Below, in pieces: positions 3,320-32,000 of a stretch of 32,000 nt of DNA (position 1 is the first letter of the stretch; each line of letters starts with the position of its first letter). The notes beneath the pieces are model-generated. The model did not search any database and was not told the origin of the DNA. It was given only the letters and a program-made list of their open reading frames with translations. The position numbers were made by a program, and so were the translations under genes. Source of the stretch: Phycisphaera mikurensis NBRC 102666 (lineage in GTDB: Bacteria > Planctomycetota > Phycisphaerae > Phycisphaerales > Phycisphaeraceae); NCBI RefSeq assembly GCF_000284115.1, contig NC_017080.1, forward strand, positions 2,310,001 to 2,342,000, in the 5' to 3' direction.

Positions 3320-3729
3320 CGCTTCGCGGCGGATCCCGCGGCCGCCTGCACCGTTTCAGGACGTTGTCGATCCACCAGCTGCCGGGCGCGAGCCTCGGCG
3401 CAGGTGGCTCATCCACACCGTGGATGTGGCGGCGGATCCAAGCGGAGAAGCCCGACGCCCCAACAACGCGGTGCGTCGCGTGCGGGCTGTTTCGGCCGGA
3501 ACCGGCTTCTCCATCGACGGTGCCGTCGAGGCGCCTGCCGCGTTGTCCGAACGGTTCTTGCTTGAACGCGGACGACCGCGGCTTCGGGTCCGGCTCCTGC
3601 CTAGCGTCGAGCACCCGGGCAGCGTCTGCGGCTGACGCACCTGCTCGGGGTTGCAGCCGATCCTGGGAACGGCCGATGGCATGCCTTCCGGGTGCCGACT
3701 GCCACAAAGCACGACCGCCACTGTCACCC

Positions 3730-5364
3730 ATGCCCCCGCTCGCCACCCCGAAGCCCTCTCCGACCTCCGAAACCGCCGCACCCCACCGCCCGGCCGTGAA
3801 GACGCTGGTCGTGGGCGGCGGTCCGGCCGGTCTGACCGCCGCGTACGAGCTGCTGAAGCACGATCCCGATGCGGCGCCGCTGGTGCTCGAGGCCACCGAC
3901 CAGGTCGGCGGCATCGCCCGGACCGAGGTCTACAAGGGCTACCGCTTCGACATCGGCGGGCACCGCTTCTTCACCAAGGTGAAGGAGGTCGAGGAGATGT
4001 GGCACGAGGTGATGGGCGACGACTTCATCGACGTGCCCCGCCAGAGCCGGATCTACTACCAAGGCAAGTACTACGACTACCCGCTGTCGATCGGCAACAC
4101 GCTGTCGAACCTGGGCGTCTACGAATCGGCGCGGATCCTCCTGTCGTACCTCAAGTGGAAGGTGAAGCCCAGCGAGCAGGAGGAGAACTTCGAGCAGTGG
4201 GTGAGCAACCGCTTCGGCGGGCGGCTGTTCTGGCACTTCTTCCGCACGTACACGGAGAAGGTTTGGGGCATCCCGTGCACCGAGATCCGGGCGGACTGGG
4301 CCGCTCAGCGGATCAAGGACCTCTCGCTCAAGAAAGCCGTGCTCGACGCCCTGACCGGCAAGAGCGACACAACCTCGCTGATCAAGACCTTCAAGTACCC
4401 GCCGCTGGGACCCGGCCAGATGTGGGAGCGCTTCGCCGAGATCATCGAGGCCAAGGGCGGCGAGGTGCGGATGCAGACACGGGTCCACCGGTTCCACCGG
4501 GAGGGCAAGCGGATCGTGTCCGCCGAGGTGCGCAGCCACACCGACCACGCCGACCACCCCGGCGACCACGACGCCGAGGCGGACGCGATCGAGGGCAAGA
4601 CCTACCCGATCGAGGCGGATCAGGTCATCAGCACGATGCCGCTCACGACGCTCGTGCGGGCGATGGACCCGCCGGCGCCCGACGACGTGCTCGCGGCCGC
4701 GGACGGACTGAACTACCGTGACTTCTTGATCGTCACGCTGATCCTCGACCGCAAGGACCCGTTCCCGGACAACTGGATCTACATCCACAGCCCGGAGGTC
4801 AAGGTCGGGCGGATCCAGAACTTCCGCAGCTGGTCCGAGGCCATGGTGCCCGACCCGAATCACGCCAGCATCGGCATGGAATACTTCTGCCACCGCGGCG
4901 ACGGCCTCTGGACCTCGACCGACGAGGAGCTGATCGCGCTGGCAACCGAGGAGCTCGGCAAGCTGGGTCTTTCCAAAGCGGAGGCCGTGATCGACGGGAC
5001 GGTGATCCGGCAGCCCAAGGCCTACCCGGTCTACGACGCGGACTACAAGCGGCACGTCGAGACGATCGAGCAGTGGGTCAAGACGCTGGAGAACCTGCAC
5101 ACGGTCGGCCGCAACGGCATGCACCGGTACAACAACCAAGACCACTCGATGCTCTCGGCGATGCACGCGGCCCGCAACGTCCTCGGCGGCGCGTACGACC
5201 CGTGGAACATCAACGTCGAGCGCTCCTACCACGAGGAGTTCGTGGTGAAGCCGAAGGACGGCAAAGCCGCAAACAAAGACGCGACCAGCGGGCTCGAGGA
5301 GGCCGCCGTCGCCGTCGAGCGGATGCAGCCGCAGCCGGTGGGAAGCGACAAGGCCGCAAGCTGA
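3730..5364 (+). CDS. NAD(P)/FAD-dependent oxidoreductase (amine-oxidase / UDP-galactopyranose-mutase-like fold)
   Basis: Rossmann dinucleotide motif VVGGGPAGLTAAYEL shortly after the ATG at 3730. The conserved stretch YKGYRFDIGGHRFFTK...IYYQGKYYDYPL is typical of this family in glycan loci. The part of track ORF 2923..5364 upstream of 3730 is Arg/Pro/Ala-rich and looks non-coding. Confidence 0.85.
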   Translation: MPPLATPKPSPTSETAAPHRPAVKTLVVGGGPAGLTAAYELLKHDPDAAPLVLEATDQVGGIARTEVYKGYRFDIGGHRFFTKVKEVEEMWHEVMGDDFIDVPRQSRIYYQGKYYDYPLSIGNTLSNLGVYESARILLSYLKWKVKPSEQEENFEQWVSNRFGGRLFWHFFRTYTEKVWGIPCTEIRADWAAQRIKDLSLKKAVLDALTGKSDTTSLIKTFKYPPLGPGQMWERFAEIIEAKGGEVRMQTRVHRFHREGKRIVSAEVRSHTDHADHPGDHDAEADAIEGKTYPIEADQVISTMPLTTLVRAMDPPAPDDVLAAADGLNYRDFLIVTLILDRKDPFPDNWIYIHSPEVKVGRIQNFRSWSEAMVPDPNHASIGMEYFCHRGDGLWTSTDEELIALATEELGKLGLSKAEAVIDGTVIRQPKAYPVYDADYKRHVETIEQWVKTLENLHTVGRNGMHRYNNQDHSMLSAMHAARNVLGGAYDPWNINVERSYHEEFVVKPKDGKAANKDATSGLEEAAVAVERMQPQPVGSDKAAS

Positions 5365-20558: not shown

Positions 20559-20592
20559 GGCAGCCACGGTTACGCCCGCATCCGTGGCTGCC
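20559..20592 (-). terminator. Perfect 11 bp hairpin downstream of the minus-strand operon
   Basis: ggcagccacgg-(12 nt)-ccgtggctgcc lies 15 nt beyond the stop of the 70-aa gene at 20607. There is no U-tract. Confidence 0.4.
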
Positions 20593-20606
20593 CGCGGCGA
20601 GCTCGC

Positions 20607-20819
20607 TCAGCCGCAGTCGCGGCGGGCTTGCGCCTCCTCGGTGGCGGCGGCGGTCATCGCCTCGGCGGCGCGACCAAGGTCCTGGAGCAGGGGCTCGATG
20701 ACGTCGTCGCCGAAGCGGCGGGCGACCTCGTCGTCCCAGCCCTCGCGGACCTGCCGCCAGCGGGCGAGCAGCACCTTCCTGGCCTCTTCGAGGCCGCCGG
20801 CTCCGGCTTGGAGGCTCAC
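20607..20819 (-). CDS. Small (70 aa) helical protein of unknown function
   Basis: The GTG at 20819 forms a GTGA overlap with the upstream stop. GC3 is high. The sequence LEEARKVLLARWRQVREGWDDEVARRFGDDVIEPLLQDLGRAAEAMTAAATEEAQ looks like a helix-turn-helix hairpin with a central W-x-x turn. It faintly resembles WXG100-type proteins, but this is not established. Confidence 0.5.
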   Translation of the reverse strand: MSLQAGAGGLEEARKVLLARWRQVREGWDDEVARRFGDDVIEPLLQDLGRAAEAMTAAATEEAQARRDCG

Positions 20820-21355
20820 GGGTTCCCCCCGCCGCCGGTGCCGGGGCCCTCGGCCGCGTCCCGCGTCGCCAGCAGCACGCGGCGGTAGCCGTCGAGGTGG
20901 CCGAGCAGGCCGTCGAGCCGCGCCCCCGCTTCGGCCACGCCGCCGGCGGCGGCGGCCCGGGCGGCGGAGGTGCCGGTGCGGTAGTCCTGCTCCACCTTCT
21001 CGAAGCGGCGGGACCACGTCCGTGTCAACGCGAGCTTCCGCTCGCACTCCTCCACGAGCTGCTTCGCGCGACGCAGCGCCTTCTGCTCCGCGGCGACCGA
21101 GGCGGGCTTGCCCGAGGGCGTGGGCGAGAGCTGCTTGCGGCGCAGCGTCGCCTGCGCGTCGTCCAGCGCCCTCACCGCTCTCGACCGCCGCTGCGCCCAG
21201 ACGCGCGGCTGCTCATCGGCGAGCCACCGCTGCGTCGAGCGGATCCCCGCGTCGGCGGAGCCGACGGAGGCACCGATCGCCTCCTCGATCTTCACGAGCA
21301 GGCGGCGGAAGTCCGCGAGCTGCTCGATCGAATGAACCTTGGCGGGTCCGGGCAT
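20816..21355 (-). CDS. Helical hypothetical protein (179 aa)
   Basis: ATG at 21355. The composition is coding-like, with long amphipathic or charged helices (IEQLADFRRLLVKIEEAIG, EQKALRRAKQLVEECERKLALTRTW) and a Gly-rich tail. Confidence 0.6.
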   Translation of the reverse strand: MPGPAKVHSIEQLADFRRLLVKIEEAIGASVGSADAGIRSTQRWLADEQPRVWAQRRSRAVRALDDAQATLRRKQLSPTPSGKPASVAAEQKALRRAKQLVEECERKLALTRTWSRRFEKVEQDYRTGTSAARAAAAGGVAEAGARLDGLLGHLDGYRRVLLATRDAAEGPGTGGGGNP

Positions 21356-21427
21356 GGCGACAGGCTAGGTCGCGCCCGGGCGGACCCCGCCCGCCGCGTC
21401 GGCGGGCGTCGGCGGCTCAAGACGCGG

Positions 21428-21442
21428 GAACCACGCGGGAAC
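21428..21442 (-). promoter_or_regulatory. GTTC-N7-GTTC direct repeat (candidate LexA operator) upstream of the 179-aa gene
   Basis: The plus strand reads GAACcacgcggGAAC and the minus strand reads GTTCccgcgtgGTTC. It lies 73 nt upstream of the ATG at 21355, inside the 140 nt lexA-downstream gap. Confidence 0.4.
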
Positions 21443-21495
21443 TACACGAGAGCCACGCATTGATTCGCCTCCCGGGTCGCTCCGCGGGGCTCGCG

Positions 21496-22134
21496 TCAGT
21501 ACGCCCGGACCACGCCGATGCAGACGCCCTGGAACCGCACGCGGTCGGCCTCGACGATCAGCGGCTCGTACTTCTCGTTGGCCGGCTCGAGCCGCACGCC
21601 GCCGCGTCGGTCCTTGAAGTAAAACTTCAGCGTGGCCTCGTCGCGGTCGACCAGGGCCACCACCATGTCGCCCTGCTTGGGAGGCCCGTCGATCTTGCGG
21701 CAGACGACGAAGTCGCCGTCGGCGACGTGGGCGTCGATCATCGAGTCGCCACGCACCTTCAGCACGAAGGTCGTCCCGCCGACGCTGCCCTTGCCGGAGG
21801 GAGCGAAGATCGTCTCGAGGTCGAGGTGCTCCCGCGTCTCGATGGCCTCGATGGGCGAACCGGCGGCGATTGAGCCCACCAGCGGCAGGCGCGTGTTGGT
21901 CTGCTCGTCAGGCAGCTCCAGATCGGGCGAGATCTCCAAAGAGCGCGCCTTGTTCTTCTGCCGCGTGAGGGCTCCTTTGCGGACGAGCGCGTCGATGTGC
22001 TCGAAGACCGTGACCTTGCTCACGTCGAGCTCGTCGGCCAGCTCCTGCATGGTCGGTGAGTAGCCACGGGTCAGCCGCGTCTCGCGGATGCGCTGCAGGA
22101 TGTGCAGCTGCTTGGGGGTCAGGTTCATGGCCAT
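21496..22134 (-). CDS. lexA: LexA repressor (SOS regulator, S24 self-cleaving peptidase)
   Basis: MAMNLTPKQLHILQRIRE...YSPTMQELADELDVSKVTVFEHIDALVRKGAL is the winged-HTH. The cleavage region is PLVGSIAAGSPIEA. The catalytic Ser is in VRGDSMIDA and the Lys is in EATLKFY. GGAG lies about 8 nt upstream of the ATG at 22134, and an alternative ATG is at 22128. Confidence 0.9.
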   Translation of the reverse strand: MAMNLTPKQLHILQRIRETRLTRGYSPTMQELADELDVSKVTVFEHIDALVRKGALTRQKNKARSLEISPDLELPDEQTNTRLPLVGSIAAGSPIEAIETREHLDLETIFAPSGKGSVGGTTFVLKVRGDSMIDAHVADGDFVVCRKIDGPPKQGDMVVALVDRDEATLKFYFKDRRGGVRLEPANEKYEPLIVEADRVRFQGVCIGVVRAY

Positions 22135-22436
22135 CAGGAGGCTCCGGAGGAGAGAAGATGCCCGCTCGCAGCGAAGCGTTGGCGGCGGGAGGGGCGGGGA
22201 CGTCGGCGACGGGCATCGCCACAAGGATCGGGTGGTGCGCCGCCCGCAGGCCCAGCAGCTGCGTCCACTGGCGGCGGAGCAGGAGGCCGGCCTCGGCCAG
22301 CGGGCTGCCGGGGGCTCCGGGACCGGCGGCCTCGGGGCCCGCCACCAGGCGGAGGAGGCGCGTGCCACGCCCGGCGAGGCCGGAGCGGAAGCTGCCGCCG
22401 GGGCCCAGCAGCACGATGGGTTCGGATGCGGTCATG
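21908..22436 (-). CDS. Questionable leader ORF upstream of and overlapping lexA
   Basis: After the ATG at 22436, about 80 codons have strong GC3 bias (MTASEPIVLLGPGGSFRSGL...HHPILVAMP). The frame has no stop until 21908, which is 227 nt inside lexA, and GC3 decays after about 22200. It may be a gene remnant or simply a 5' leader. Confidence 0.25.
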
Positions 22437-22478
22437 GCGGGCTCTTCCAATCCCGGCGACCCGCGGGGCGCGGATCGT

Positions 22479-22493
22479 GTTCGGGACGCGTTC
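22479..22493 (+). promoter_or_regulatory. GTTC-N7-GTTC direct repeat (candidate LexA operator) in the divergent lexA / hpnC gap
   Basis: GTTCgggacgcGTTC lies 43 nt from the ATG at 22436 (minus-strand leader ORF and lexA) and 92 nt from the hpnC GTG at 22585. Confidence 0.4.
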
Positions 22494-22584
22494 TAACCTA
22501 ACGAGCCGCGAACGTCAAGCCCGCGAGCCTCGCGGGTGTTCCGGCGGGCGTTTCTCGGCTGTCAGGAGGCGGTACGGTCCGCGG

Positions 22585-23529
22585 GTGCCCGACGCTCCGA
22601 CCGCCCAGACCGATGCGCGGACGCGGGGCCGGCGGGAGAACTTCCCGGTGCTCTCCTGGCTCGTCCCGCGTCGGCTCCAGCCGGCCTACGCCGCCGTCTA
22701 CCGCTTCTGCCGGGCGGCGGACGACGCGGCGGACCGGCCCGGCGACCCGGCGGAGAACCTCCAACGCCTCGCGGAGCTGCGGGCCGGCGTCGCGTCTCTC
22801 TACGGCGGCCTCCCGGGGCGTGCCGCGGACCGTGCGGTCTTCGGGCCGCTCGGGGCCGCGGTCCGCGGATTCGGGCTCCCACGCGCCGCGTTCGACGACC
22901 TGCTCGACGCCTTCGAGCAGGACCAGCGGCAGAGCCACTACGCCACCTGGGAGGACCTGCTGGGCTACTGCCGGCGGAGCGCCGACCCGGTCGGCCGGCT
23001 CGTGCTGAAGATCCACGGCGTCGAGGATGCCGAGCGGCTCGCCCTCTCCGACGCGACCTGCACCGCCCTCCAGCTCACCAATAACCTGCAGGACCTCCGC
23101 CCCGACCTGCTCACGCTCGGCCGCTCGTACCTGCCCGAGGACGTCGCCAACCGCCACGGCCTCGACCCACGCGCGCTGGCGGCGGCGATCCGCCGCGACG
23201 CCGGGAGCGACGCGGCCGCGTGCCGGGCGTGCCCGCCGGTGGCCGGAGCGGAGCTGCGGGCGCTGGCGGCGCCGCTGGCCGCGACCGTCGCCGACCTCGC
23301 CGCGCGTGCCCGGGCCCTCTTCGAGGCGGGCTCCGCCCTCCCCGCCCGGCTTCCCCCCCGGGCGGCCCGGCCGGTCGCCGCCTTCGGCCTCGCCGGCGCG
23401 GCGGTGCTCCGGCGGGTCGCCGAGGCGGGCCCGGGCCTCGCCCGACGGCGGCCGCCGCCGCCGCGCGGGGCGCTGGCGGTGGCGCTCCTGAAGGCCCGCT
23501 TCACGCCGCACGGGAAGGGTTCGCCTTGA
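22585..23529 (+). CDS. hpnC: Hydroxysqualene synthase HpnC (squalene/phytoene synthase family)
   Basis: ENFPVLSWLVPRRLQPAYAAVYRFCRAADDAAD is the HpnC-type N-terminus with the first Asp-rich motif. ALQLTNNLQDLRPD...YLP is the second motif region. The GTG at 22585 is the only in-frame start candidate I found between AGGAGG (22564-22569) and the conserved N-terminal motif. Confidence 0.85.
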   Translation: MPDAPTAQTDARTRGRRENFPVLSWLVPRRLQPAYAAVYRFCRAADDAADRPGDPAENLQRLAELRAGVASLYGGLPGRAADRAVFGPLGAAVRGFGLPRAAFDDLLDAFEQDQRQSHYATWEDLLGYCRRSADPVGRLVLKIHGVEDAERLALSDATCTALQLTNNLQDLRPDLLTLGRSYLPEDVANRHGLDPRALAAAIRRDAGSDAAACRACPPVAGAELRALAAPLAATVADLAARARALFEAGSALPARLPPRAARPVAAFGLAGAAVLRRVAEAGPGLARRRPPPPRGALAVALLKARFTPHGKGSP

Positions 23530-24482
23530 AGCCGGGGTACCTCGACGAGCCGGAGCGGTCCGCCGTCGCCGCCTGCCGCGAGCGGACGCGGCGGCTCGCC
23601 CGCAGCTTCCACGCGGGCATGCGGCTGACGCCCGAGCCGGGCTTCTCCGCCCTCTGCGTCGTCTACGTGTGGATGCACGCGGCCGATGAGATCGCCGACG
23701 GCCCGCCGCCGCTGGATGGGGACCGGGTGGCCGAGGCGGAGCGCTTCTGGAGCCGCACGACGAGGATCCTCGACGGCGGCGAGGCCGCTCATCCGGCCTC
23801 CGCCGCCACCCCCGCGCCCGGCCCGCCGCTCTGGCCCGCCCTCGCCTGGCTCGCCCGCGGCTTTGCGCTCCCCCGCGACGCGCTCCGCGGCGTGATCGAC
23901 GGCCAGCTCGCCGACCTCTCGTTCACGCAGCCGCCGTCGGAGGCGGCGTTGGACGCCTACTGCCGGCGTGTCGCCTCCACCGTGGGCCGCGTCTGCGTCG
24001 CCGTGTGGGGTGGCGACCCGGCGGCGACCGGCCACCTGGCGGACGCCCGCGGCGTGGCGCTGCAGCGGACCAACGTCCTCCGCGACGTCGCCGAGGACGC
24101 GGCCCGCGGGCGGGTCTACCTCCCCGCCGACGCCCTCGCCCGCCACGGCCTGGTGCCCGCCGACCTGGCCGCGCCGCCCCCCGACGACGCCACCGGCGAC
24201 CGCCTCCGGCGGCTCCTCGCCGAGCAGGTGGACCTCGCCCGCGCCTGGTACGACCGCTCGGCCGCCCTGGAGGTGCGCCTCCCGCGCCGCGGCCGCGCCT
24301 CCAGCGGCGCGATCGGCGGCGTCTACCGCGCCCTCTTGGAGGAGATCGCCCGCGATCCGCTGGCCGTCCTGTCGCGTCGGGTGCGGCCGACCCGGCCCAA
24401 GCGGCTCGCGGCGGTCGCCCGCGCGTGGGCGATGAGCCGCCTGCCGGCGCCGATCCTCCTGCGGTTAGCTTCTCGCCCATGA
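23526..24482 (+). CDS. hpnD: Presqualene diphosphate synthase HpnD (squalene/phytoene synthase family)
   Basis: The TTG at 23526 forms a TTGA overlap. The motifs are ARSFHAGMRLTPEP...VVYVWMHAADEIADG (DxxxD) and ALQRTNVLRDVAEDAARGRVYLP (DxxED). Confidence 0.85.
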   Translation: MKPGYLDEPERSAVAACRERTRRLARSFHAGMRLTPEPGFSALCVVYVWMHAADEIADGPPPLDGDRVAEAERFWSRTTRILDGGEAAHPASAATPAPGPPLWPALAWLARGFALPRDALRGVIDGQLADLSFTQPPSEAALDAYCRRVASTVGRVCVAVWGGDPAATGHLADARGVALQRTNVLRDVAEDAARGRVYLPADALARHGLVPADLAAPPPDDATGDRLRRLLAEQVDLARAWYDRSAALEVRLPRRGRASSGAIGGVYRALLEEIARDPLAVLSRRVRPTRPKRLAAVARAWAMSRLPAPILLRLASRP

Positions 24483-25927
24483 GCCACGCCGACGCCCAGG
24501 ATGAACCGATGACCAGCCCGCCCGGGGCGGCCGGGACCGCCGTCGTGGTCGGCGGAGGCGTCGCGGGCGTCGCCGCGGCGGTCGCTCTGGCCGACGCCGG
24601 CGTCCGCGTGACGCTGCTCGAGCAGCGTGGCCGCCTCGGCGGGCGTGCCACCTCCGTCGACGACGCCAAGGCCGGCGGCGCCCTGGACAACGGCCAGCAC
24701 GTGGTGATGCGGTCGTGCACGCAGCTGCTCGCGCTCTACCGCCGCCTCGGCACCGCCGGCGAGCTGCGCTGGGCCGAGACCCTGCACTTCGCCGACCCCG
24801 ACGACCCGAGCACGCTGCACCCGCTCAAGGGCGACGACCTGCCCGCCCCGCTGCACCTCGTGCGGCCGCTGCTGGGCTTCGGGCTGCTGACGCTCGGCGA
24901 GCGGCTCTCGGTCGCCCGCGCGTCCCTCGCCGCGCTGCAGACCGGCCGCTCCTCCTGGGCCGCCCGGGGCGAGGAAAGCTTCGCCGACTGGCTCGCGGAG
25001 CACAAGCAAGGCGAAGCGGAGATCCAGAAGTTCTGGCGGCCGATGATCGTGTCGGCGTGCAACGAGGAGCCCGCCGGCGTCGCCGCCGGCGTCGGCCTGC
25101 AGGTGCTCTGCGAGGGCGTGATGTCGCGTGACGACGGGCTGGAGCTCGGCGTCGCCGCGGTGCCGCTGGCGGACCTGCTCGCGCCGGCGATCCCGATCAT
25201 CGAGGCCGCCGGCGGCGAGGTGCGCACCGGCACCACCGCCACCGGCTTCGACCTCGAGAGCGGCCGCGTTGCCGGCGTCACGCTCAACAGCGGCGAGTCC
25301 CTCGCGGCCGACCACGTCGTCGCCGCCGTCCCGGCCGACCGCCTCGCCGCCCTGCTGCCCGGAGGCCTCGCCGGCGACGACCGGCTGACCGGCCTGGACG
25401 CCCTCGGTTACAGCCCCATCGTCAGCGTCCACCTGCTGCTGCACGCCTTCGACGGCGGCGTGGTGCTGCCGGCGGAGCGCGTCGCCCTGCCCGGCCGTCC
25501 GATCCACTGGATGTTCGAGACCGCCGCGCCCGAAGGCGCAGAGGACGCCCAGAACCTCCGGCACGTCCGCTGCGTGGTTTCCGCCGCCCGCAACCTCGTG
25601 GACCTGCCCGCGGGCGAGATCACGGAGATCGCGATGCGGGAAGTCCGCCGCCTGGTCCCCGGCAAGCGGGTGGAGGCTCGCCACAGCCGCGTGATCAAGG
25701 AGCGGCACGCGACTTTCTCCGTCGCCCCGGGCTCCGATGCGCACCGCCCCGCGGCCGCGGGCCCCTCCGGCCTGCTGCTCGCCGGCGACTGGACCGCCAC
25801 CGGCTGGCCCGCGACGATGGAGGGCGCCGCCCGCAGCGGAGCCGCGGCGGCCGCGGCGGCGCTGGGAGAGGACCACCGGCCCGCGGCCCCGGAGGCGTCG
25901 CTGCTCTACCGCGTCATCGCGGGCTGA
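24479..25927 (+). CDS. hpnE: FAD-dependent hydroxysqualene dehydroxylase HpnE (amine-oxidase fold)
   Basis: The ATG at 24479 forms an ATGA overlap. VVVGGGVAGVAAAVALADAGVRVTLLEQRGRLGGRA is the dinucleotide-binding motif. The C-terminal LLLAGDWTATGWPATMEGAARSG motif is present. Position after hpnC-hpnD supports the call. Confidence 0.85.
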   Translation: MSHADAQDEPMTSPPGAAGTAVVVGGGVAGVAAAVALADAGVRVTLLEQRGRLGGRATSVDDAKAGGALDNGQHVVMRSCTQLLALYRRLGTAGELRWAETLHFADPDDPSTLHPLKGDDLPAPLHLVRPLLGFGLLTLGERLSVARASLAALQTGRSSWAARGEESFADWLAEHKQGEAEIQKFWRPMIVSACNEEPAGVAAGVGLQVLCEGVMSRDDGLELGVAAVPLADLLAPAIPIIEAAGGEVRTGTTATGFDLESGRVAGVTLNSGESLAADHVVAAVPADRLAALLPGGLAGDDRLTGLDALGYSPIVSVHLLLHAFDGGVVLPAERVALPGRPIHWMFETAAPEGAEDAQNLRHVRCVVSAARNLVDLPAGEITEIAMREVRRLVPGKRVEARHSRVIKERHATFSVAPGSDAHRPAAAGPSGLLLAGDWTATGWPATMEGAARSGAAAAAAALGEDHRPAAPEASLLYRVIAG

Positions 25928-28321: not shown

Positions 28322-28479
28322 CCGGCGGCCGGGGTGCGGGCCTCGGCGGCGCCGCGTGGAGCGTTCGCCGCCCGGGCCGCTCTGCCACAACGGCAGAAGG
28401 CTCCGCGGCCCCGGCGGAGAGAAGGCAGACGGAGCCGGATCCCGCGGGCCGCGACCGCGGCGGGAGCCGCTCCGGCGAG

Positions 28480-28495
28480 TGGCACACGGCTTGCA
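28480..28495 (+). promoter_or_regulatory. Exact sigma-54 (-24/-12) consensus upstream of groEL1
   Basis: TGGCACacggcTTGCA matches TGGCAC-N5-TTGCA at all 11 specified positions. The -12 element ends 70 nt upstream of the groEL1 ATG at 28566. Confidence 0.5.
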
Positions 28496-28565
28496 ATCTT
28501 CGGGACCCGCGGGCTTGCCGTCCGCGGCCGAACCCGCACGCACCCTCCACCGGAGATCCACACCC

Positions 28566-30266
<1,701 letters not shown>

Positions 30267-30711: not shown

Positions 30712-30833
30712 AAGAGCGAAGAAGCGAAGAAGCGAAGAAGGGAGGAAGTCAGACAGCGGGCGTCGCTCGATGGACTTCCAAGCCTCACCTGCTGACTTCT
30801 CCGCTTCCCAACTTCTTCGCTTCTTCGCTTGAG
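30712..30833 (+). repeat. Long imperfect inverted repeat containing 3x GCGAAGAA tandem units, in the groES-groEL2 spacer
   Basis: 30722-30740 (aagcgaagaagcgaagaag) pairs perfectly over 19 bp with 30812-30830 (cttcttcgcttcttcgctt). An upper 8-9 bp stem forms between 30744/45-30752 and 30792-30800. The apical loop is about 39 nt. Confidence 0.7.
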
Positions 30834-30879
30834 CGGCGCAGCCGCTGCCCCCCCACCACGAACCAAAGGAGCCAAAACC

Positions 30880-32000
30880 ATGGCAACCAAGCAAATGATC
30901 TTCGGCGCCGAAGCGCAGTCCGAACTCAGAAGCGGCCTCGAGAAGCTCGCCGCCGCCGTCAAGATCACGATGGGCCCCACCGGCCGCAACGTGATCCTCC
31001 AGAAGTCCTACGGCGGCCCCGCCGTCACCAAGGACGGCGTCTCCGTCGCCAAGGAAGTGGAGCTGGAGTCTCCCTTCGAGAACATGGGCGCGAAGATGGT
31101 CGTCGAGGTCGCCAAGAAGACCGGCGACAAGGCCGGCGACGGGACGACCACCTCGGTCGTCCTCGCCGAGGCGATCTACAAAGAGGGCCTGCGGCACGCG
31201 TCCGCGGGCGCGAACAGCGTCGCGCTGCAGCGCGGCATCAACGCCGCCGCCGAGGCCGCCAGCGAGGCGATCAAGGCGATGGCCACCAAGGTCTCCGGCC
31301 GCGACGACCTGGAGAAGGTCGCCACCGTCTCCGCCAACCACGACCGCCACATCGGCCGGCTGCTCGCCGAGGCGATCGACAAGGTCGGCCACGACGGCGT
31401 CGTCGAGATCGAGGAGGGCAAGACCGCCGAGACCGAGCTGGAGTACGTCGAGGGCATGCAGTTCGACAAGGGCTACCTGTCGCCCTACTTCATGACCGAC
31501 CCCAACCACGCCGAGGCGGTCCTGGAGGACACGCTGATCCTCGTCCACGAGAAGAAGATCAGCAACCTGCCCGACCTCCTGCCGCTGCTCAACAAGGTGG
31601 CGATGGCGCAGAAGCCCCTGCTCATCATCGCCGAGGACGTGGAGAACGAGGCCCTCGCGGCCCTGGTCGTCAACCGCCTCCGCGGCGTGCTCAAGGTCGC
31701 GGCCGTCAAGGCCCCCGGCTTCGGCGACCGCCGCAAGGCCATGCTCGGCGACATCGCCGCGCTCACCGGCGCGACCTTCATCTCCGAGGATCTGGGGATC
31801 CAGCTGGACAGCCTCGAGCTGGATCAGCTCGGCACCGCCCGCAAGGTGACCGTCGGCAAGGACAACACGACGATCATCGAGGGCGGCGGCAAGAAAGCCG
31901 ACGTCGACGGCCGCGTCAAGCAGATCCAGAAGCAGATCGAGACCACCACCAGCGACTACGACCGCGAGAAGCTCCAGGAGCGTCTCGCGAAGCTGACCGG
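30880..32000 (+). CDS. groEL: Chaperonin GroEL (copy 2), 3'-truncated by the window edge
   Basis: This gene is missing from the ORF track because no stop lies in the window. My own translation from the ATG at 30880 gives [62 protein letters not shown]...[12 protein letters not shown]...[17 protein letters not shown]...[24 protein letters not shown] lies 8 nt upstream. Confidence 0.95.

Follow-up and report, generated by a model that had tools for sequence, protein, structure and literature searches.

The DNA analysed here (the window) is a 32 kb stretch of Phycisphaera mikurensis (Planctomycetota) with a G + C content of about 73%, and this report concerns its lexA locus and the GTTC-N7-GTTC direct repeats found there. 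On the minus strand a conserved small open reading frame (ORF), named ORF-X, is followed by lexA, a gene for a 179-amino-acid (aa) protein and a gene for a 70-aa protein (Table 1); a squalene/phytoene-synthase gene diverges from them on the plus strand from about position 22573. The remaining genes of the window encode polysaccharide-synthesis enzymes, hopanoid-type functions, FliM and two chaperonins, and no DNA-repair gene other than lexA was found within the 32 kb. An initial annotation, made from the letters alone, had drawn attention to the motif GTTCNNNNNNNGTTC (GTTC-N7-GTTC), which is present exactly twice in the window, as site 1 and site 2. It had also described a GTGA overlap coupling the 179-aa and 70-aa ORFs and two perfect hairpins, one on either side of this pair, and all of these are present; the 11-bp hairpin (arms 20559-20569 and 20582-20592) was read directly, the repeat search not having reported it. 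Both sites had been placed in gaps beside lexA, which is correct for site 2 and not for site 1, the latter lying 345 nt upstream of the lexA start with ORF-X in between.

Table 1. Coordinates of the features of the P. mikurensis lexA locus within the window
Feature	Position	Strand	Basis or remark
-35 hexamer TTGACG of the ORF-X/lexA operon promoter	22513-22518	-	Direct reading; unchanged across four clade genomes
Spacer direct repeat GTTCG-N6-GTTAG (GTTC-N7-GTTA), best candidate LexA box	22498-22513	-	Family matrix
-10 hexamer TAGAAC, 17 nt from the -35	22490-22495	-	Unchanged across four clade genomes
Site 1, GTTCgggacgcGTTC; on the gene strand GAAC-N7-GAAC, over -10/+1	22479-22493	+	Exact motif match
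ORF-X, conserved small ORF, MTASEPIVLLGPGGSF...	22135-22435	-	Coding GC profile and conserved N-terminus
lexA, 212 aa, MAMNLTPKQ...	21496-22134	-	PF01726 1.4e-11, PF00717 4.8e-24
11-bp-period tandem array, 3.4 copies of ACGCGGGAACC, containing site 2	21422-21458		Tandem Repeats Finder
Site 2, GTTC-N7-GTTC	21428-21442	-	Exact motif match
Perfect 9-bp GC hairpin (loop of 3 nt) in the stretch from site 2 to the 179-aa start	21388-21408		No T-run after it
179-aa two-helix protein, 'X' family	20816-21355	-	Identical (100%) to a hypothetical protein of P. mikurensis
70-aa helical hairpin, 'Y' family, W-x-D in the turn	20607-20819	-	Alignment and AlphaFold2
Perfect 11-bp hairpin, 12-nt loop, 15 nt past the 70-aa stop	20559-20592		No T-run; terminator scan without a call

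L-numbers (L001, L010 and so on) denote loci or contigs of relatives; the lexA comparison set comprises 80 Phycisphaerae/Planctomycetota loci; and the promoter was compared within a mikurensis clade made up of the window, L001, L003 and L086, whose 179-aa proteins are 68-75% identical. The product of lexA is a canonical LexA, with a LexA_DNA_bind winged helix at the N-terminus and a Peptidase_S24 domain at the C-terminus, and matches solved LexA structures over its full length, the best match being Thermotoga LexA (3k2z). The cleavage and dyad motifs VGSIAAGSP (with the Ala-Gly site), RGDSM and EATLKFY were read from the translation and assigned by motif position. The closest genomic LexA loci were Planctomycetota in 80 of 80 cases, and P. 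mikurensis and other Phycisphaerae have one invariant recognition helix, SKVTVFEH; one LexA specificity is therefore expected across the Phycisphaerae.

In dinucleotide shuffles 0.68 matches to GTTC-N7-GTTC are expected per window, and two or more occurred in 13 of 100 shuffles. The motif count alone is thus not significant, and only the placement of the matches counts.

The promoter TTGACG-N17-TAGAAC was found on the minus strand (22518-22490), upstream of ORF-X and lexA. A generic promoter scan did not call TAGAAC, whose sixth position is not T; it holds the same place as the TATTAT of the main-group promoters described below. The spacer between the two hexamers contains a further direct repeat which is one mismatch from the motif and was overlooked in the initial annotation, and it is this repeat that is closest to the family-wide box. 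With a scoring matrix built from 16 training boxes, all of them spacer repeats, a matrix that is small and biased to AT-rich spacers, the spacer repeat is the sole match in the window above 12 bits (15.6 bits), and site 1 scores 9.1 bits. The direct GTTC pair with 7 nt between its members is thus exact at sites 1 and 2 and reads GTTC-N7-GTTA in the spacer; placement over the core promoter of the lexA operon, together with conservation in relatives, is seen for site 1 and the spacer repeat and not for site 2.

Alignment of the four clade genomes revealed a conserved island, TTGACGTT.GC.....GTT.GG.TAGAACG....CCGAACA, within flanks that cannot be aligned. Across this alignment the spacer between the -35 and the -10 is filled by GTTCG-N6-GTT(A/C)G, and TAGAACG-N4-CCGAACA is invariant in P. 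mikurensis, L001, L003 and L086, with four of the seven spacer bases of site 1 variable. The candidate operator consists, then, of two 11-bp-period direct repeats of a GTT(C/A)G half-site, placed head to head.

On their other side, the candidate LexA boxes (22479-22518) are close to the divergent squalene/phytoene-synthase (hpnC-like) gene, upstream of it by no more than about 60-95 nt, and the hopanoid-type cluster to which it belongs (22573-25927) could share a regulatory region with the lexA-operon promoter. Relatives carry a tRNA-Glu gene (L086 7623-7695), or a remnant of one, at the place of this gene.

In other genomes lexA is also preceded by ORF-X, with the promoter about 420 nt upstream. 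An apparent absence of the motif from relatives (GAAC-N7-GAAC in 0 of 80 loci within 450 nt of lexA) is explained by this distance and was discarded as an argument. About 56 lexA loci have the common layout TTGACA-N11-GTTAGGT-TATTAT-TCG...C(G/T)AACA, in which GTTAG and ATTCG stand 11 bp apart and are followed by an inverted copy, GAAT-N7-KAAC. The layout of the window, TTGAC-GTTCG-N6-GTTAG before the -10, was found in the lexA operons of L001, L043-45, L071, L074, L076 and L077, and at least ten lexA-operon promoters of other Phycisphaerae are of this type. The closest GTDB relatives (L005, L006 and L017) have TAAC-N7-(G/A)AAC at the position of site 1, and direct periods of 5 and 11 are prominent among the half-site pairs of the promoter set.

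The same repeat occurs at recA. All five recA promoters in the set (L031, L062, L089, L091 and L093) read TTGAC(A/T)-GTTAG-N6-GTT(T/G)(G/A)-TAnAAT, with invariant tetramers and variable N6 and flanks. This set is composed of two lexA loci that also contain recA and three metagenome contigs with a closely related RecA; most of 80 metagenome recA loci came from other phyla, and the P. mikurensis RecA was not among the 120 matches listed for the L062 RecA query. In L010 the sequence TTGTAT-GTTCG-N6-GTTAG-G-TATACT is located 75 nt before an ORF that matches the error-prone DNA polymerase DnaE2 over its N-terminus (NF004225, 1.7e-38), the repeat again standing before its own -10, here behind a weaker -35-like TTGTAT. 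About 130 codons into the dnaE2-like ORF (L010 4927-5650, downstream of lexA), a tandem repeat of (S/P)RDQGTKG-encoding units interrupts it; either the gene is disrupted or the assembly is at fault here.

In about 700 kb of Phycisphaerae DNA, all repeats directly preceded by TTGAC are located at lexA-operon or recA promoters. The strict motif has 27 occurrences versus 8.6 +/- 2.7 in shuffles (maximum 16), about a 3-fold enrichment, and the promoter element was found in 0-1 of 80 control regions. Palindromic models (GAAC-N4-GTTC, TGTT..AACA and CTGT..ACAG) were tried as well and rejected, none being enriched. Given the conserved island and the repeats at lexA, recA and dnaE2, it is very probable that GTT(C/A)G, repeated directly with a period of 11 bp, forms the SOS box of Phycisphaerae, and the proposal of the initial annotation that a GTTC-N7-GTTC-type repeat serves as a LexA operator in a non-alphaproteobacterial lineage is to that extent very probably right.

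ORF-X looks to be a coding gene. The GC contents of its three codon positions are 0.82, 0.63 and 0.88; an N-terminal LLGPGGSF motif is common to L001, L086 and the main-group ORF-X; and the frame has no stop before the lexA start, running on to 21908, about 65 codons into lexA in another frame. The consensus across Phycisphaerae is ...LLCVLGPGGdy...RPLPPVVFGSLSAYLAEEY, with counterparts in L008, L010, L020, L026, L034, L047, L064, L065, L079 and L083 at about 3610-4200, and the final codons of the conserved part, GCG GAG GAA, also act as the ribosome-binding site of lexA. No family for ORF-X was found in Pfam, PADLOC or PHROGs. Right before its start a nearly invariant motif, CGCAAAGGAGTGCG, is present in about 47-49 of the 80 loci (main group, L010-L084), about 80 nt downstream of the lexA-operon promoter, and upstream of it lies a conserved leader segment, C(G/T)AACACGGGTGC, in which local pairing is possible. 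The CGCAAAGGAGTGCG region may be more than a ribosome-binding site.

Site 2 differs from site 1 and the spacer repeat. It consists of two nearly perfect copies of ACGCGGGAAC(C/T), with a third, degenerate copy after them, and since it is part of an 11-bp tandem array its two GTTC tetramers are not independent; the window holds five period-11 arrays in all. No counterpart was found in L001, L002, L003, L004 or L086, though a lexA-pair gap is there (140-660 nt). Both half-sites of site 2 are GTTCC, versus 15 of 16 first and 15 of 16 second training half-sites ending in G, and its family-matrix score is -3.4 bits versus 15.6 for the spacer repeat. Neither the promoter scan nor direct reading found a -35 or a -10 around it. 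Site 2 is thus a tandem duplication of 11 bp, peculiar to this species and situated in the 140-nt gap that follows lexA. It is probably not a conserved operator, and the earlier view that it is placed to control the gene pair is not supported.

The 9-bp hairpin in this gap is not conserved in relatives; the RNA fold of the whole lexA-pair gap is no better than that of shuffles (z = -0.39), with the hairpin present in the centroid. The sole feature common to the region upstream of the 179-aa gene in the six clade members is a TAnnnT hexamer (TAGCCT, TACGCT, TACCGT, TACGGT, TAAGCT), far from site 2 and 6-7 nt before the ATG in six of six (window 21362-21367, minus strand; equivalents in L001-L004 and L086), with no Shine-Dalgarno sequence present. 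It could be the -10 of a promoter for a leaderless mRNA. Enlarged gaps around the pair in relatives (L086 8828-9485; L001 3400-3640) contain short palindromic or repeated elements, for example CACGACCCTTCAGGGTCGTG twice and GCAGATGAACGCAGATGG, which resemble repetitive extragenic palindromic (REP) or miniature mobile elements.

The two genes downstream of lexA had been described as belonging to no nameable family. A word-indexed search with the 179-aa protein indeed gave five relatives, but a full profile search gave 1004, of which 363 have E <= 1e-10, and this X family is tied to clusters with WXG100 and FtsK/SpoIIIE genes. Named members come from Phycisphaeraceae and Tepidisphaeraceae. Many relatives are 340-360 aa long and carry a C-terminal Imm33-like domain, which a Pfam scan of 44 members detected in seven, the other hits being noise. 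In six of six distant contexts a 90-aa PF06013 WXG100 protein, X, a 70-74-aa Y protein and a 1220-1360-aa FtsK/SpoIIIE ATPase are encoded in that order, neighbouring genes overlapping by 4 nt in four of the six. These four-gene operons (L085 5514-10834; L087 6684-12352; L088 6602-11904; L169; L170 3427-8660; L171) thus combine a W-x-D WXG100 protein, a 180-345-aa helical protein with or without the Imm33-like C-terminus, a 70-aa hairpin and the ATPase. No published description of such a compact WXG100-X-Y-ATPase operon was found in the literature searched.

AlphaFold2 modelled the 179-aa protein with helices at 8-76 and 88-168 (predicted local distance difference test, pLDDT, 73.6), and the N-terminus of the X family aligned with the cluster WXG100 profile at P = 0.0019, 'RWLADEQ' falling against 'DWQDQEQ'. 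A fold search with this model returned generic coiled coils only, and the X profile had no match among PDB sequences. For the 70-aa protein a shallow clade alignment gave a model with pLDDT 94.5 and helices at 3-25 and 30-69. It aligns with the 70-74-aa proteins of the clusters, W21, W28, D30, M55 and C69 being invariant, and hhalign of its family against the cluster WXG100 profile gave P = 0.011 with the W-x-D in register; in the WXG100 proteins of the clusters, too, the turn is W-x-D. The 70-aa protein of the window matched neither PF06013 nor PF25547, one relative alone reaching WXG100_2 at E = 0.068, and a Foldseek search of the model gave nothing significant, with Esx proteins only at E > 1. 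The earlier guess of a WXG100-like hairpin finds support in the cluster context, the confident model and the profile alignment. As judged from these relationships, the pair is best described as a displaced or duplicated, diverged copy of the two middle genes of an operon resembling type VII secretion system (T7SS) operons, and it most plausibly works as a WXG100-like helical complex. X and Y would probably form a helical bundle handled by an FtsK/SpoIIIE-type ATPase. No WXG100 or ATPase gene was found in the window or near the pair in the mikurensis-clade contigs, and no LexA-type repeats were found upstream of the canonical WXG100 clusters.

A toxin, antitoxin, defence or SulA-type division-inhibitor identity was also considered; Pfam, NCBIfam, PADLOC and PHROGs returned only coiled-coil noise, and the idea that the pair is a new SOS effector, such as a division or growth inhibitor or a toxin-like pair, currently does not stand. 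When the six-frame ORFs of all 80 lexA loci were searched with the pair (phmmer), no locus outside the mikurensis clade had it beside lexA. Conservation of this synteny, which had been suggested as a check, was therefore found within the clade, where the ORF-X/lexA/X/Y block is kept in four of four complete contigs, and not beyond it. Both flanks of the block differ between P. mikurensis and its relatives: tRNA-Glu and ABC (ATP-binding cassette)-transporter genes in the relatives versus hopanoid and glycosyltransferase genes in P. mikurensis. Since the block is kept while its flanks differ, co-expression of the pair with lexA is hinted at. SOS control of the pair by read-through from the lexA operon is possible, and would be the simplest route if there is any such control, because only a GC hairpin and no T-tract terminator lies between lexA and the pair.

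Elsewhere in the window, two adjacent genes of the Cpn60/TCP-1 chaperonin family were found on the plus strand (28356-30263 and 30796-32000). The first ends in a Gly-Gly-Met repeat tail, with tandem repeats at 30171-30260.

Taken as a whole, the explanation that we favour, a direct-repeat operator at the lexA-operon promoter, site 2 as a duplication and the pair as a derivative of a WXG100-type cluster, is given a probability of about 0.62. What the analysis shows directly are the features of the sequence, how far they are conserved, the homologies and the surroundings of the genes, whereas LexA binding and repression, co-transcription and secretion are inferred. In this scheme lexA would be the second gene of an ORF-X-lexA operon read from a sigma-70-type promoter, and LexA seated on the two head-to-head repeats would occlude RNA polymerase and so regulate its own synthesis.

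Several points weigh against this explanation. The operator case is built on sequence features and gene contexts; the recA and dnaE2 boxes come from other Phycisphaerae, P. mikurensis being covered by the 32-kb window, and for dnaE2 there is one locus, whose ORF is disrupted. The main-group lexA promoters are mostly homologous to each other and so are not independent observations. Palindromic combinations of the half-sites also occur (GTTC-N5-GAAC, GTTCG-N14-CGAAC, and CGAAC-N4-GTTAG in a few main-group promoters), so that a dimer may bind in the direct register or in one of these. On the side of the pair, X and Y show weak similarity to WXG100 (P = 0.002-0.01), and no WXG100 or ATPase gene is found in the window. 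Finally, the position of site 2 beside lexA is roughly a 0.3-1% coincidence under a uniform model, an unlikely one, so that a young operator there keeps some probability.

The strongest competitor takes up this last point: both exact sites would be LexA operators, and site 2 would give the pair a LexA-repressed promoter of its own or a roadblock, making it a lineage-specific SOS effector. Site 2 does match the motif exactly, in the 11-bp register of the supported box, and it falls in the single stretch that separates lexA from the pair, some 140 nt out of 32000, where about 0.003 matches are expected by chance; an 11-bp tandem duplication of a single half-site would make a direct-repeat operator in one step, and the linkage of lexA and the pair is kept in the clade despite the changed flanks. 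Against it stand the absence of site 2 from five relatives, its GTTCC half-sites and negative score, the lack of a -35 or -10 nearby, the location of the TAnnnT hexamer, the sole clade-wide upstream feature of the 179-aa gene, far from it, the occurrence of period-11 arrays in the window regardless, and the canonical WXG100 clusters that have no box. We regard it as unlikely, and keep a minor share of our confidence for a function of site 2 because its position is improbable and an 11-bp duplication is an obvious route to an operator. Chance, that is, two random matches to a low-information 8-base motif in 32 kb of GC-rich DNA, would agree with the shuffles described above and with the other exact matches seen in coding DNA of related contigs; for site 2 this reading stands, whereas for site 1 it is refuted by conservation in four genomes, with equivalents in deeper relatives, the motif family being about 3-fold enriched and concentrated at SOS promoters, and as an account of both sites it is very improbable.

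A further alternative is that the GTTMG repeats (M, C or A) are an element of promoter architecture, or the site of another regulator, and that their likeness to the alphaproteobacterial box is coincidental. In about 56 promoters GTTAGG has a constant position immediately before the -10 and could be a polymerase or sigma contact, and several half-site arrangements coexist, the LexA reading of these repeats being a prediction from sequence. In about 700 kb, however, the element is confined to the promoters of the lexA operon, recA and dnaE2, the three most canonical SOS genes, it is nearly absent from control regions, and variable spacers between invariant tetramers are typical of an operator bound by a dimer; we give this alternative little credence. 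Two of the proposals can also be combined: LexA of Phycisphaerae would read GTT(C/A)G-N6-GTTKG, and site 2 would be a LexA site newly made in P. mikurensis by 11-bp tandem duplication of one half-site, upstream of the pair. This combination is doubtful, somewhat more so than a role for site 2 as such. If it is true, the 11-bp-period repeat would be independent of, or anciently shared with, the alphaproteobacterial box, an orphan WXG100-like pair derived from a secretion system would be under direct SOS control, and site 2 would be a caught-in-the-act case of direct-repeat operators recruiting members of a regulon.

Under the favoured explanation, the Phycisphaerae SOS regulon could be reconstructed with the help of a candidate box, GTT(C/A)G-N6-GTTKG, located between the -35 and the -10, and there would be one more example for those who discuss how LexA changes between reading palindromes and reading direct repeats. 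One may also ask whether the alphaproteobacterial type has an earlier origin or a wider distribution than has been assumed. As by-products the analysis yielded the WXG100-X-Y-FtsK/SpoIIIE cluster, widespread in Phycisphaerae, with its two uncharacterised WXG100-like families, and the conserved small ORF that overlaps lexA and is probably co-transcribed with it.

A T7SS combines EsxA-type WXG100 hairpins with an FtsK/SpoIIIE ATPase of the EssC/EccC type. Components shared among T7SSs have been described (PMC11217815), and WXG/LXG domains have been considered signals for YueA-like pumps (PMC3113570). The likeness of the pair to these systems lies in its homologues, which stand between PF06013 WXG100 and FtsK/SpoIIIE ATPase genes in six of six contexts, in the confident hairpin of the 70-aa protein, and in the weak alignment of both proteins, their Trp motif in register, to the WXG100 profile of the clusters. 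Unlike a T7SS, the P. mikurensis pair has no adjoining WXG100 or ATPase gene, its turn motif is W-x-D and not W-x-G, it has no Pfam WXG100 match, and its hairpin is 70 aa long whereas the canonical WXG100 hairpin has about 100; no other T7SS membrane components were seen. An analogy with LXG proteins and their small helical partners may be drawn. Planctomycetes are diderm-like, and secretion of the pair would be proposed by analogy. With lexA-linked SOS effectors, such as SulA-type inhibitors and SOS toxin pairs, the pair has in common that its genes are small and lie downstream of lexA on the same strand; it differs from them in having no sequence or fold match and in a family context that is a secretion-type cluster without a LexA box.

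The GTTC-N7-GTTC direct-repeat LexA box has been described for Alphaproteobacteria (PMC8565304, PMC3323433), and a title cited in PMC3323433 and PMC7739468 extends it to Acidobacterium capsulatum, with lateral acquisition of lexA. Direct-repeat recognition by LexA is said to have arisen independently several times (PMC7739468); for this general statement that paper cites LexA-box papers on Verrucomicrobia, Patescibacteria and Acidobacterium, and the motif it gives for Balneolaeota is the direct repeat TTACACATATTTTWTACATA. According to PMC3108266 the E. coli box is not used by the LexA of planctomycetes, and no planctomycete LexA box was found in the literature searched. The earlier claim of an operator unreported in another lineage therefore holds for planctomycetes in that literature and not for lineages at large, given the cited title on A. 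capsulatum. Because of the alphaproteobacterial and Acidobacterium precedents and the repeated origin of direct-repeat boxes, we regard the present case as an operator type already known, in variant form and in a new lineage, and not as a new principle.

The closest comparison is with the alphaproteobacterial box, which has the same tetramer, the same direct orientation and the same 11-bp period; the repeat described here likewise occupies the lexA promoter, and relatives have it at the promoters of recA and dnaE2. It differs in its host, a member of the Planctomycetota (Phycisphaerae), in its conserved half-site GTT(C/A)G, of which GTTAG is the commonest form, and in the two repeats that Phycisphaera has head to head around the -10, where LexA is predicted to bind. 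Verrucomicrobia belong to the same Planctomycetes-Verrucomicrobia-Chlamydiae superphylum as Planctomycetota. The sequence of the Phycisphaerae box differs from the Balneolaeota motif, and as in Balneolaeota and the other lineages named above, a LexA from outside the Proteobacteria apparently reads a tandem and not a palindromic site.

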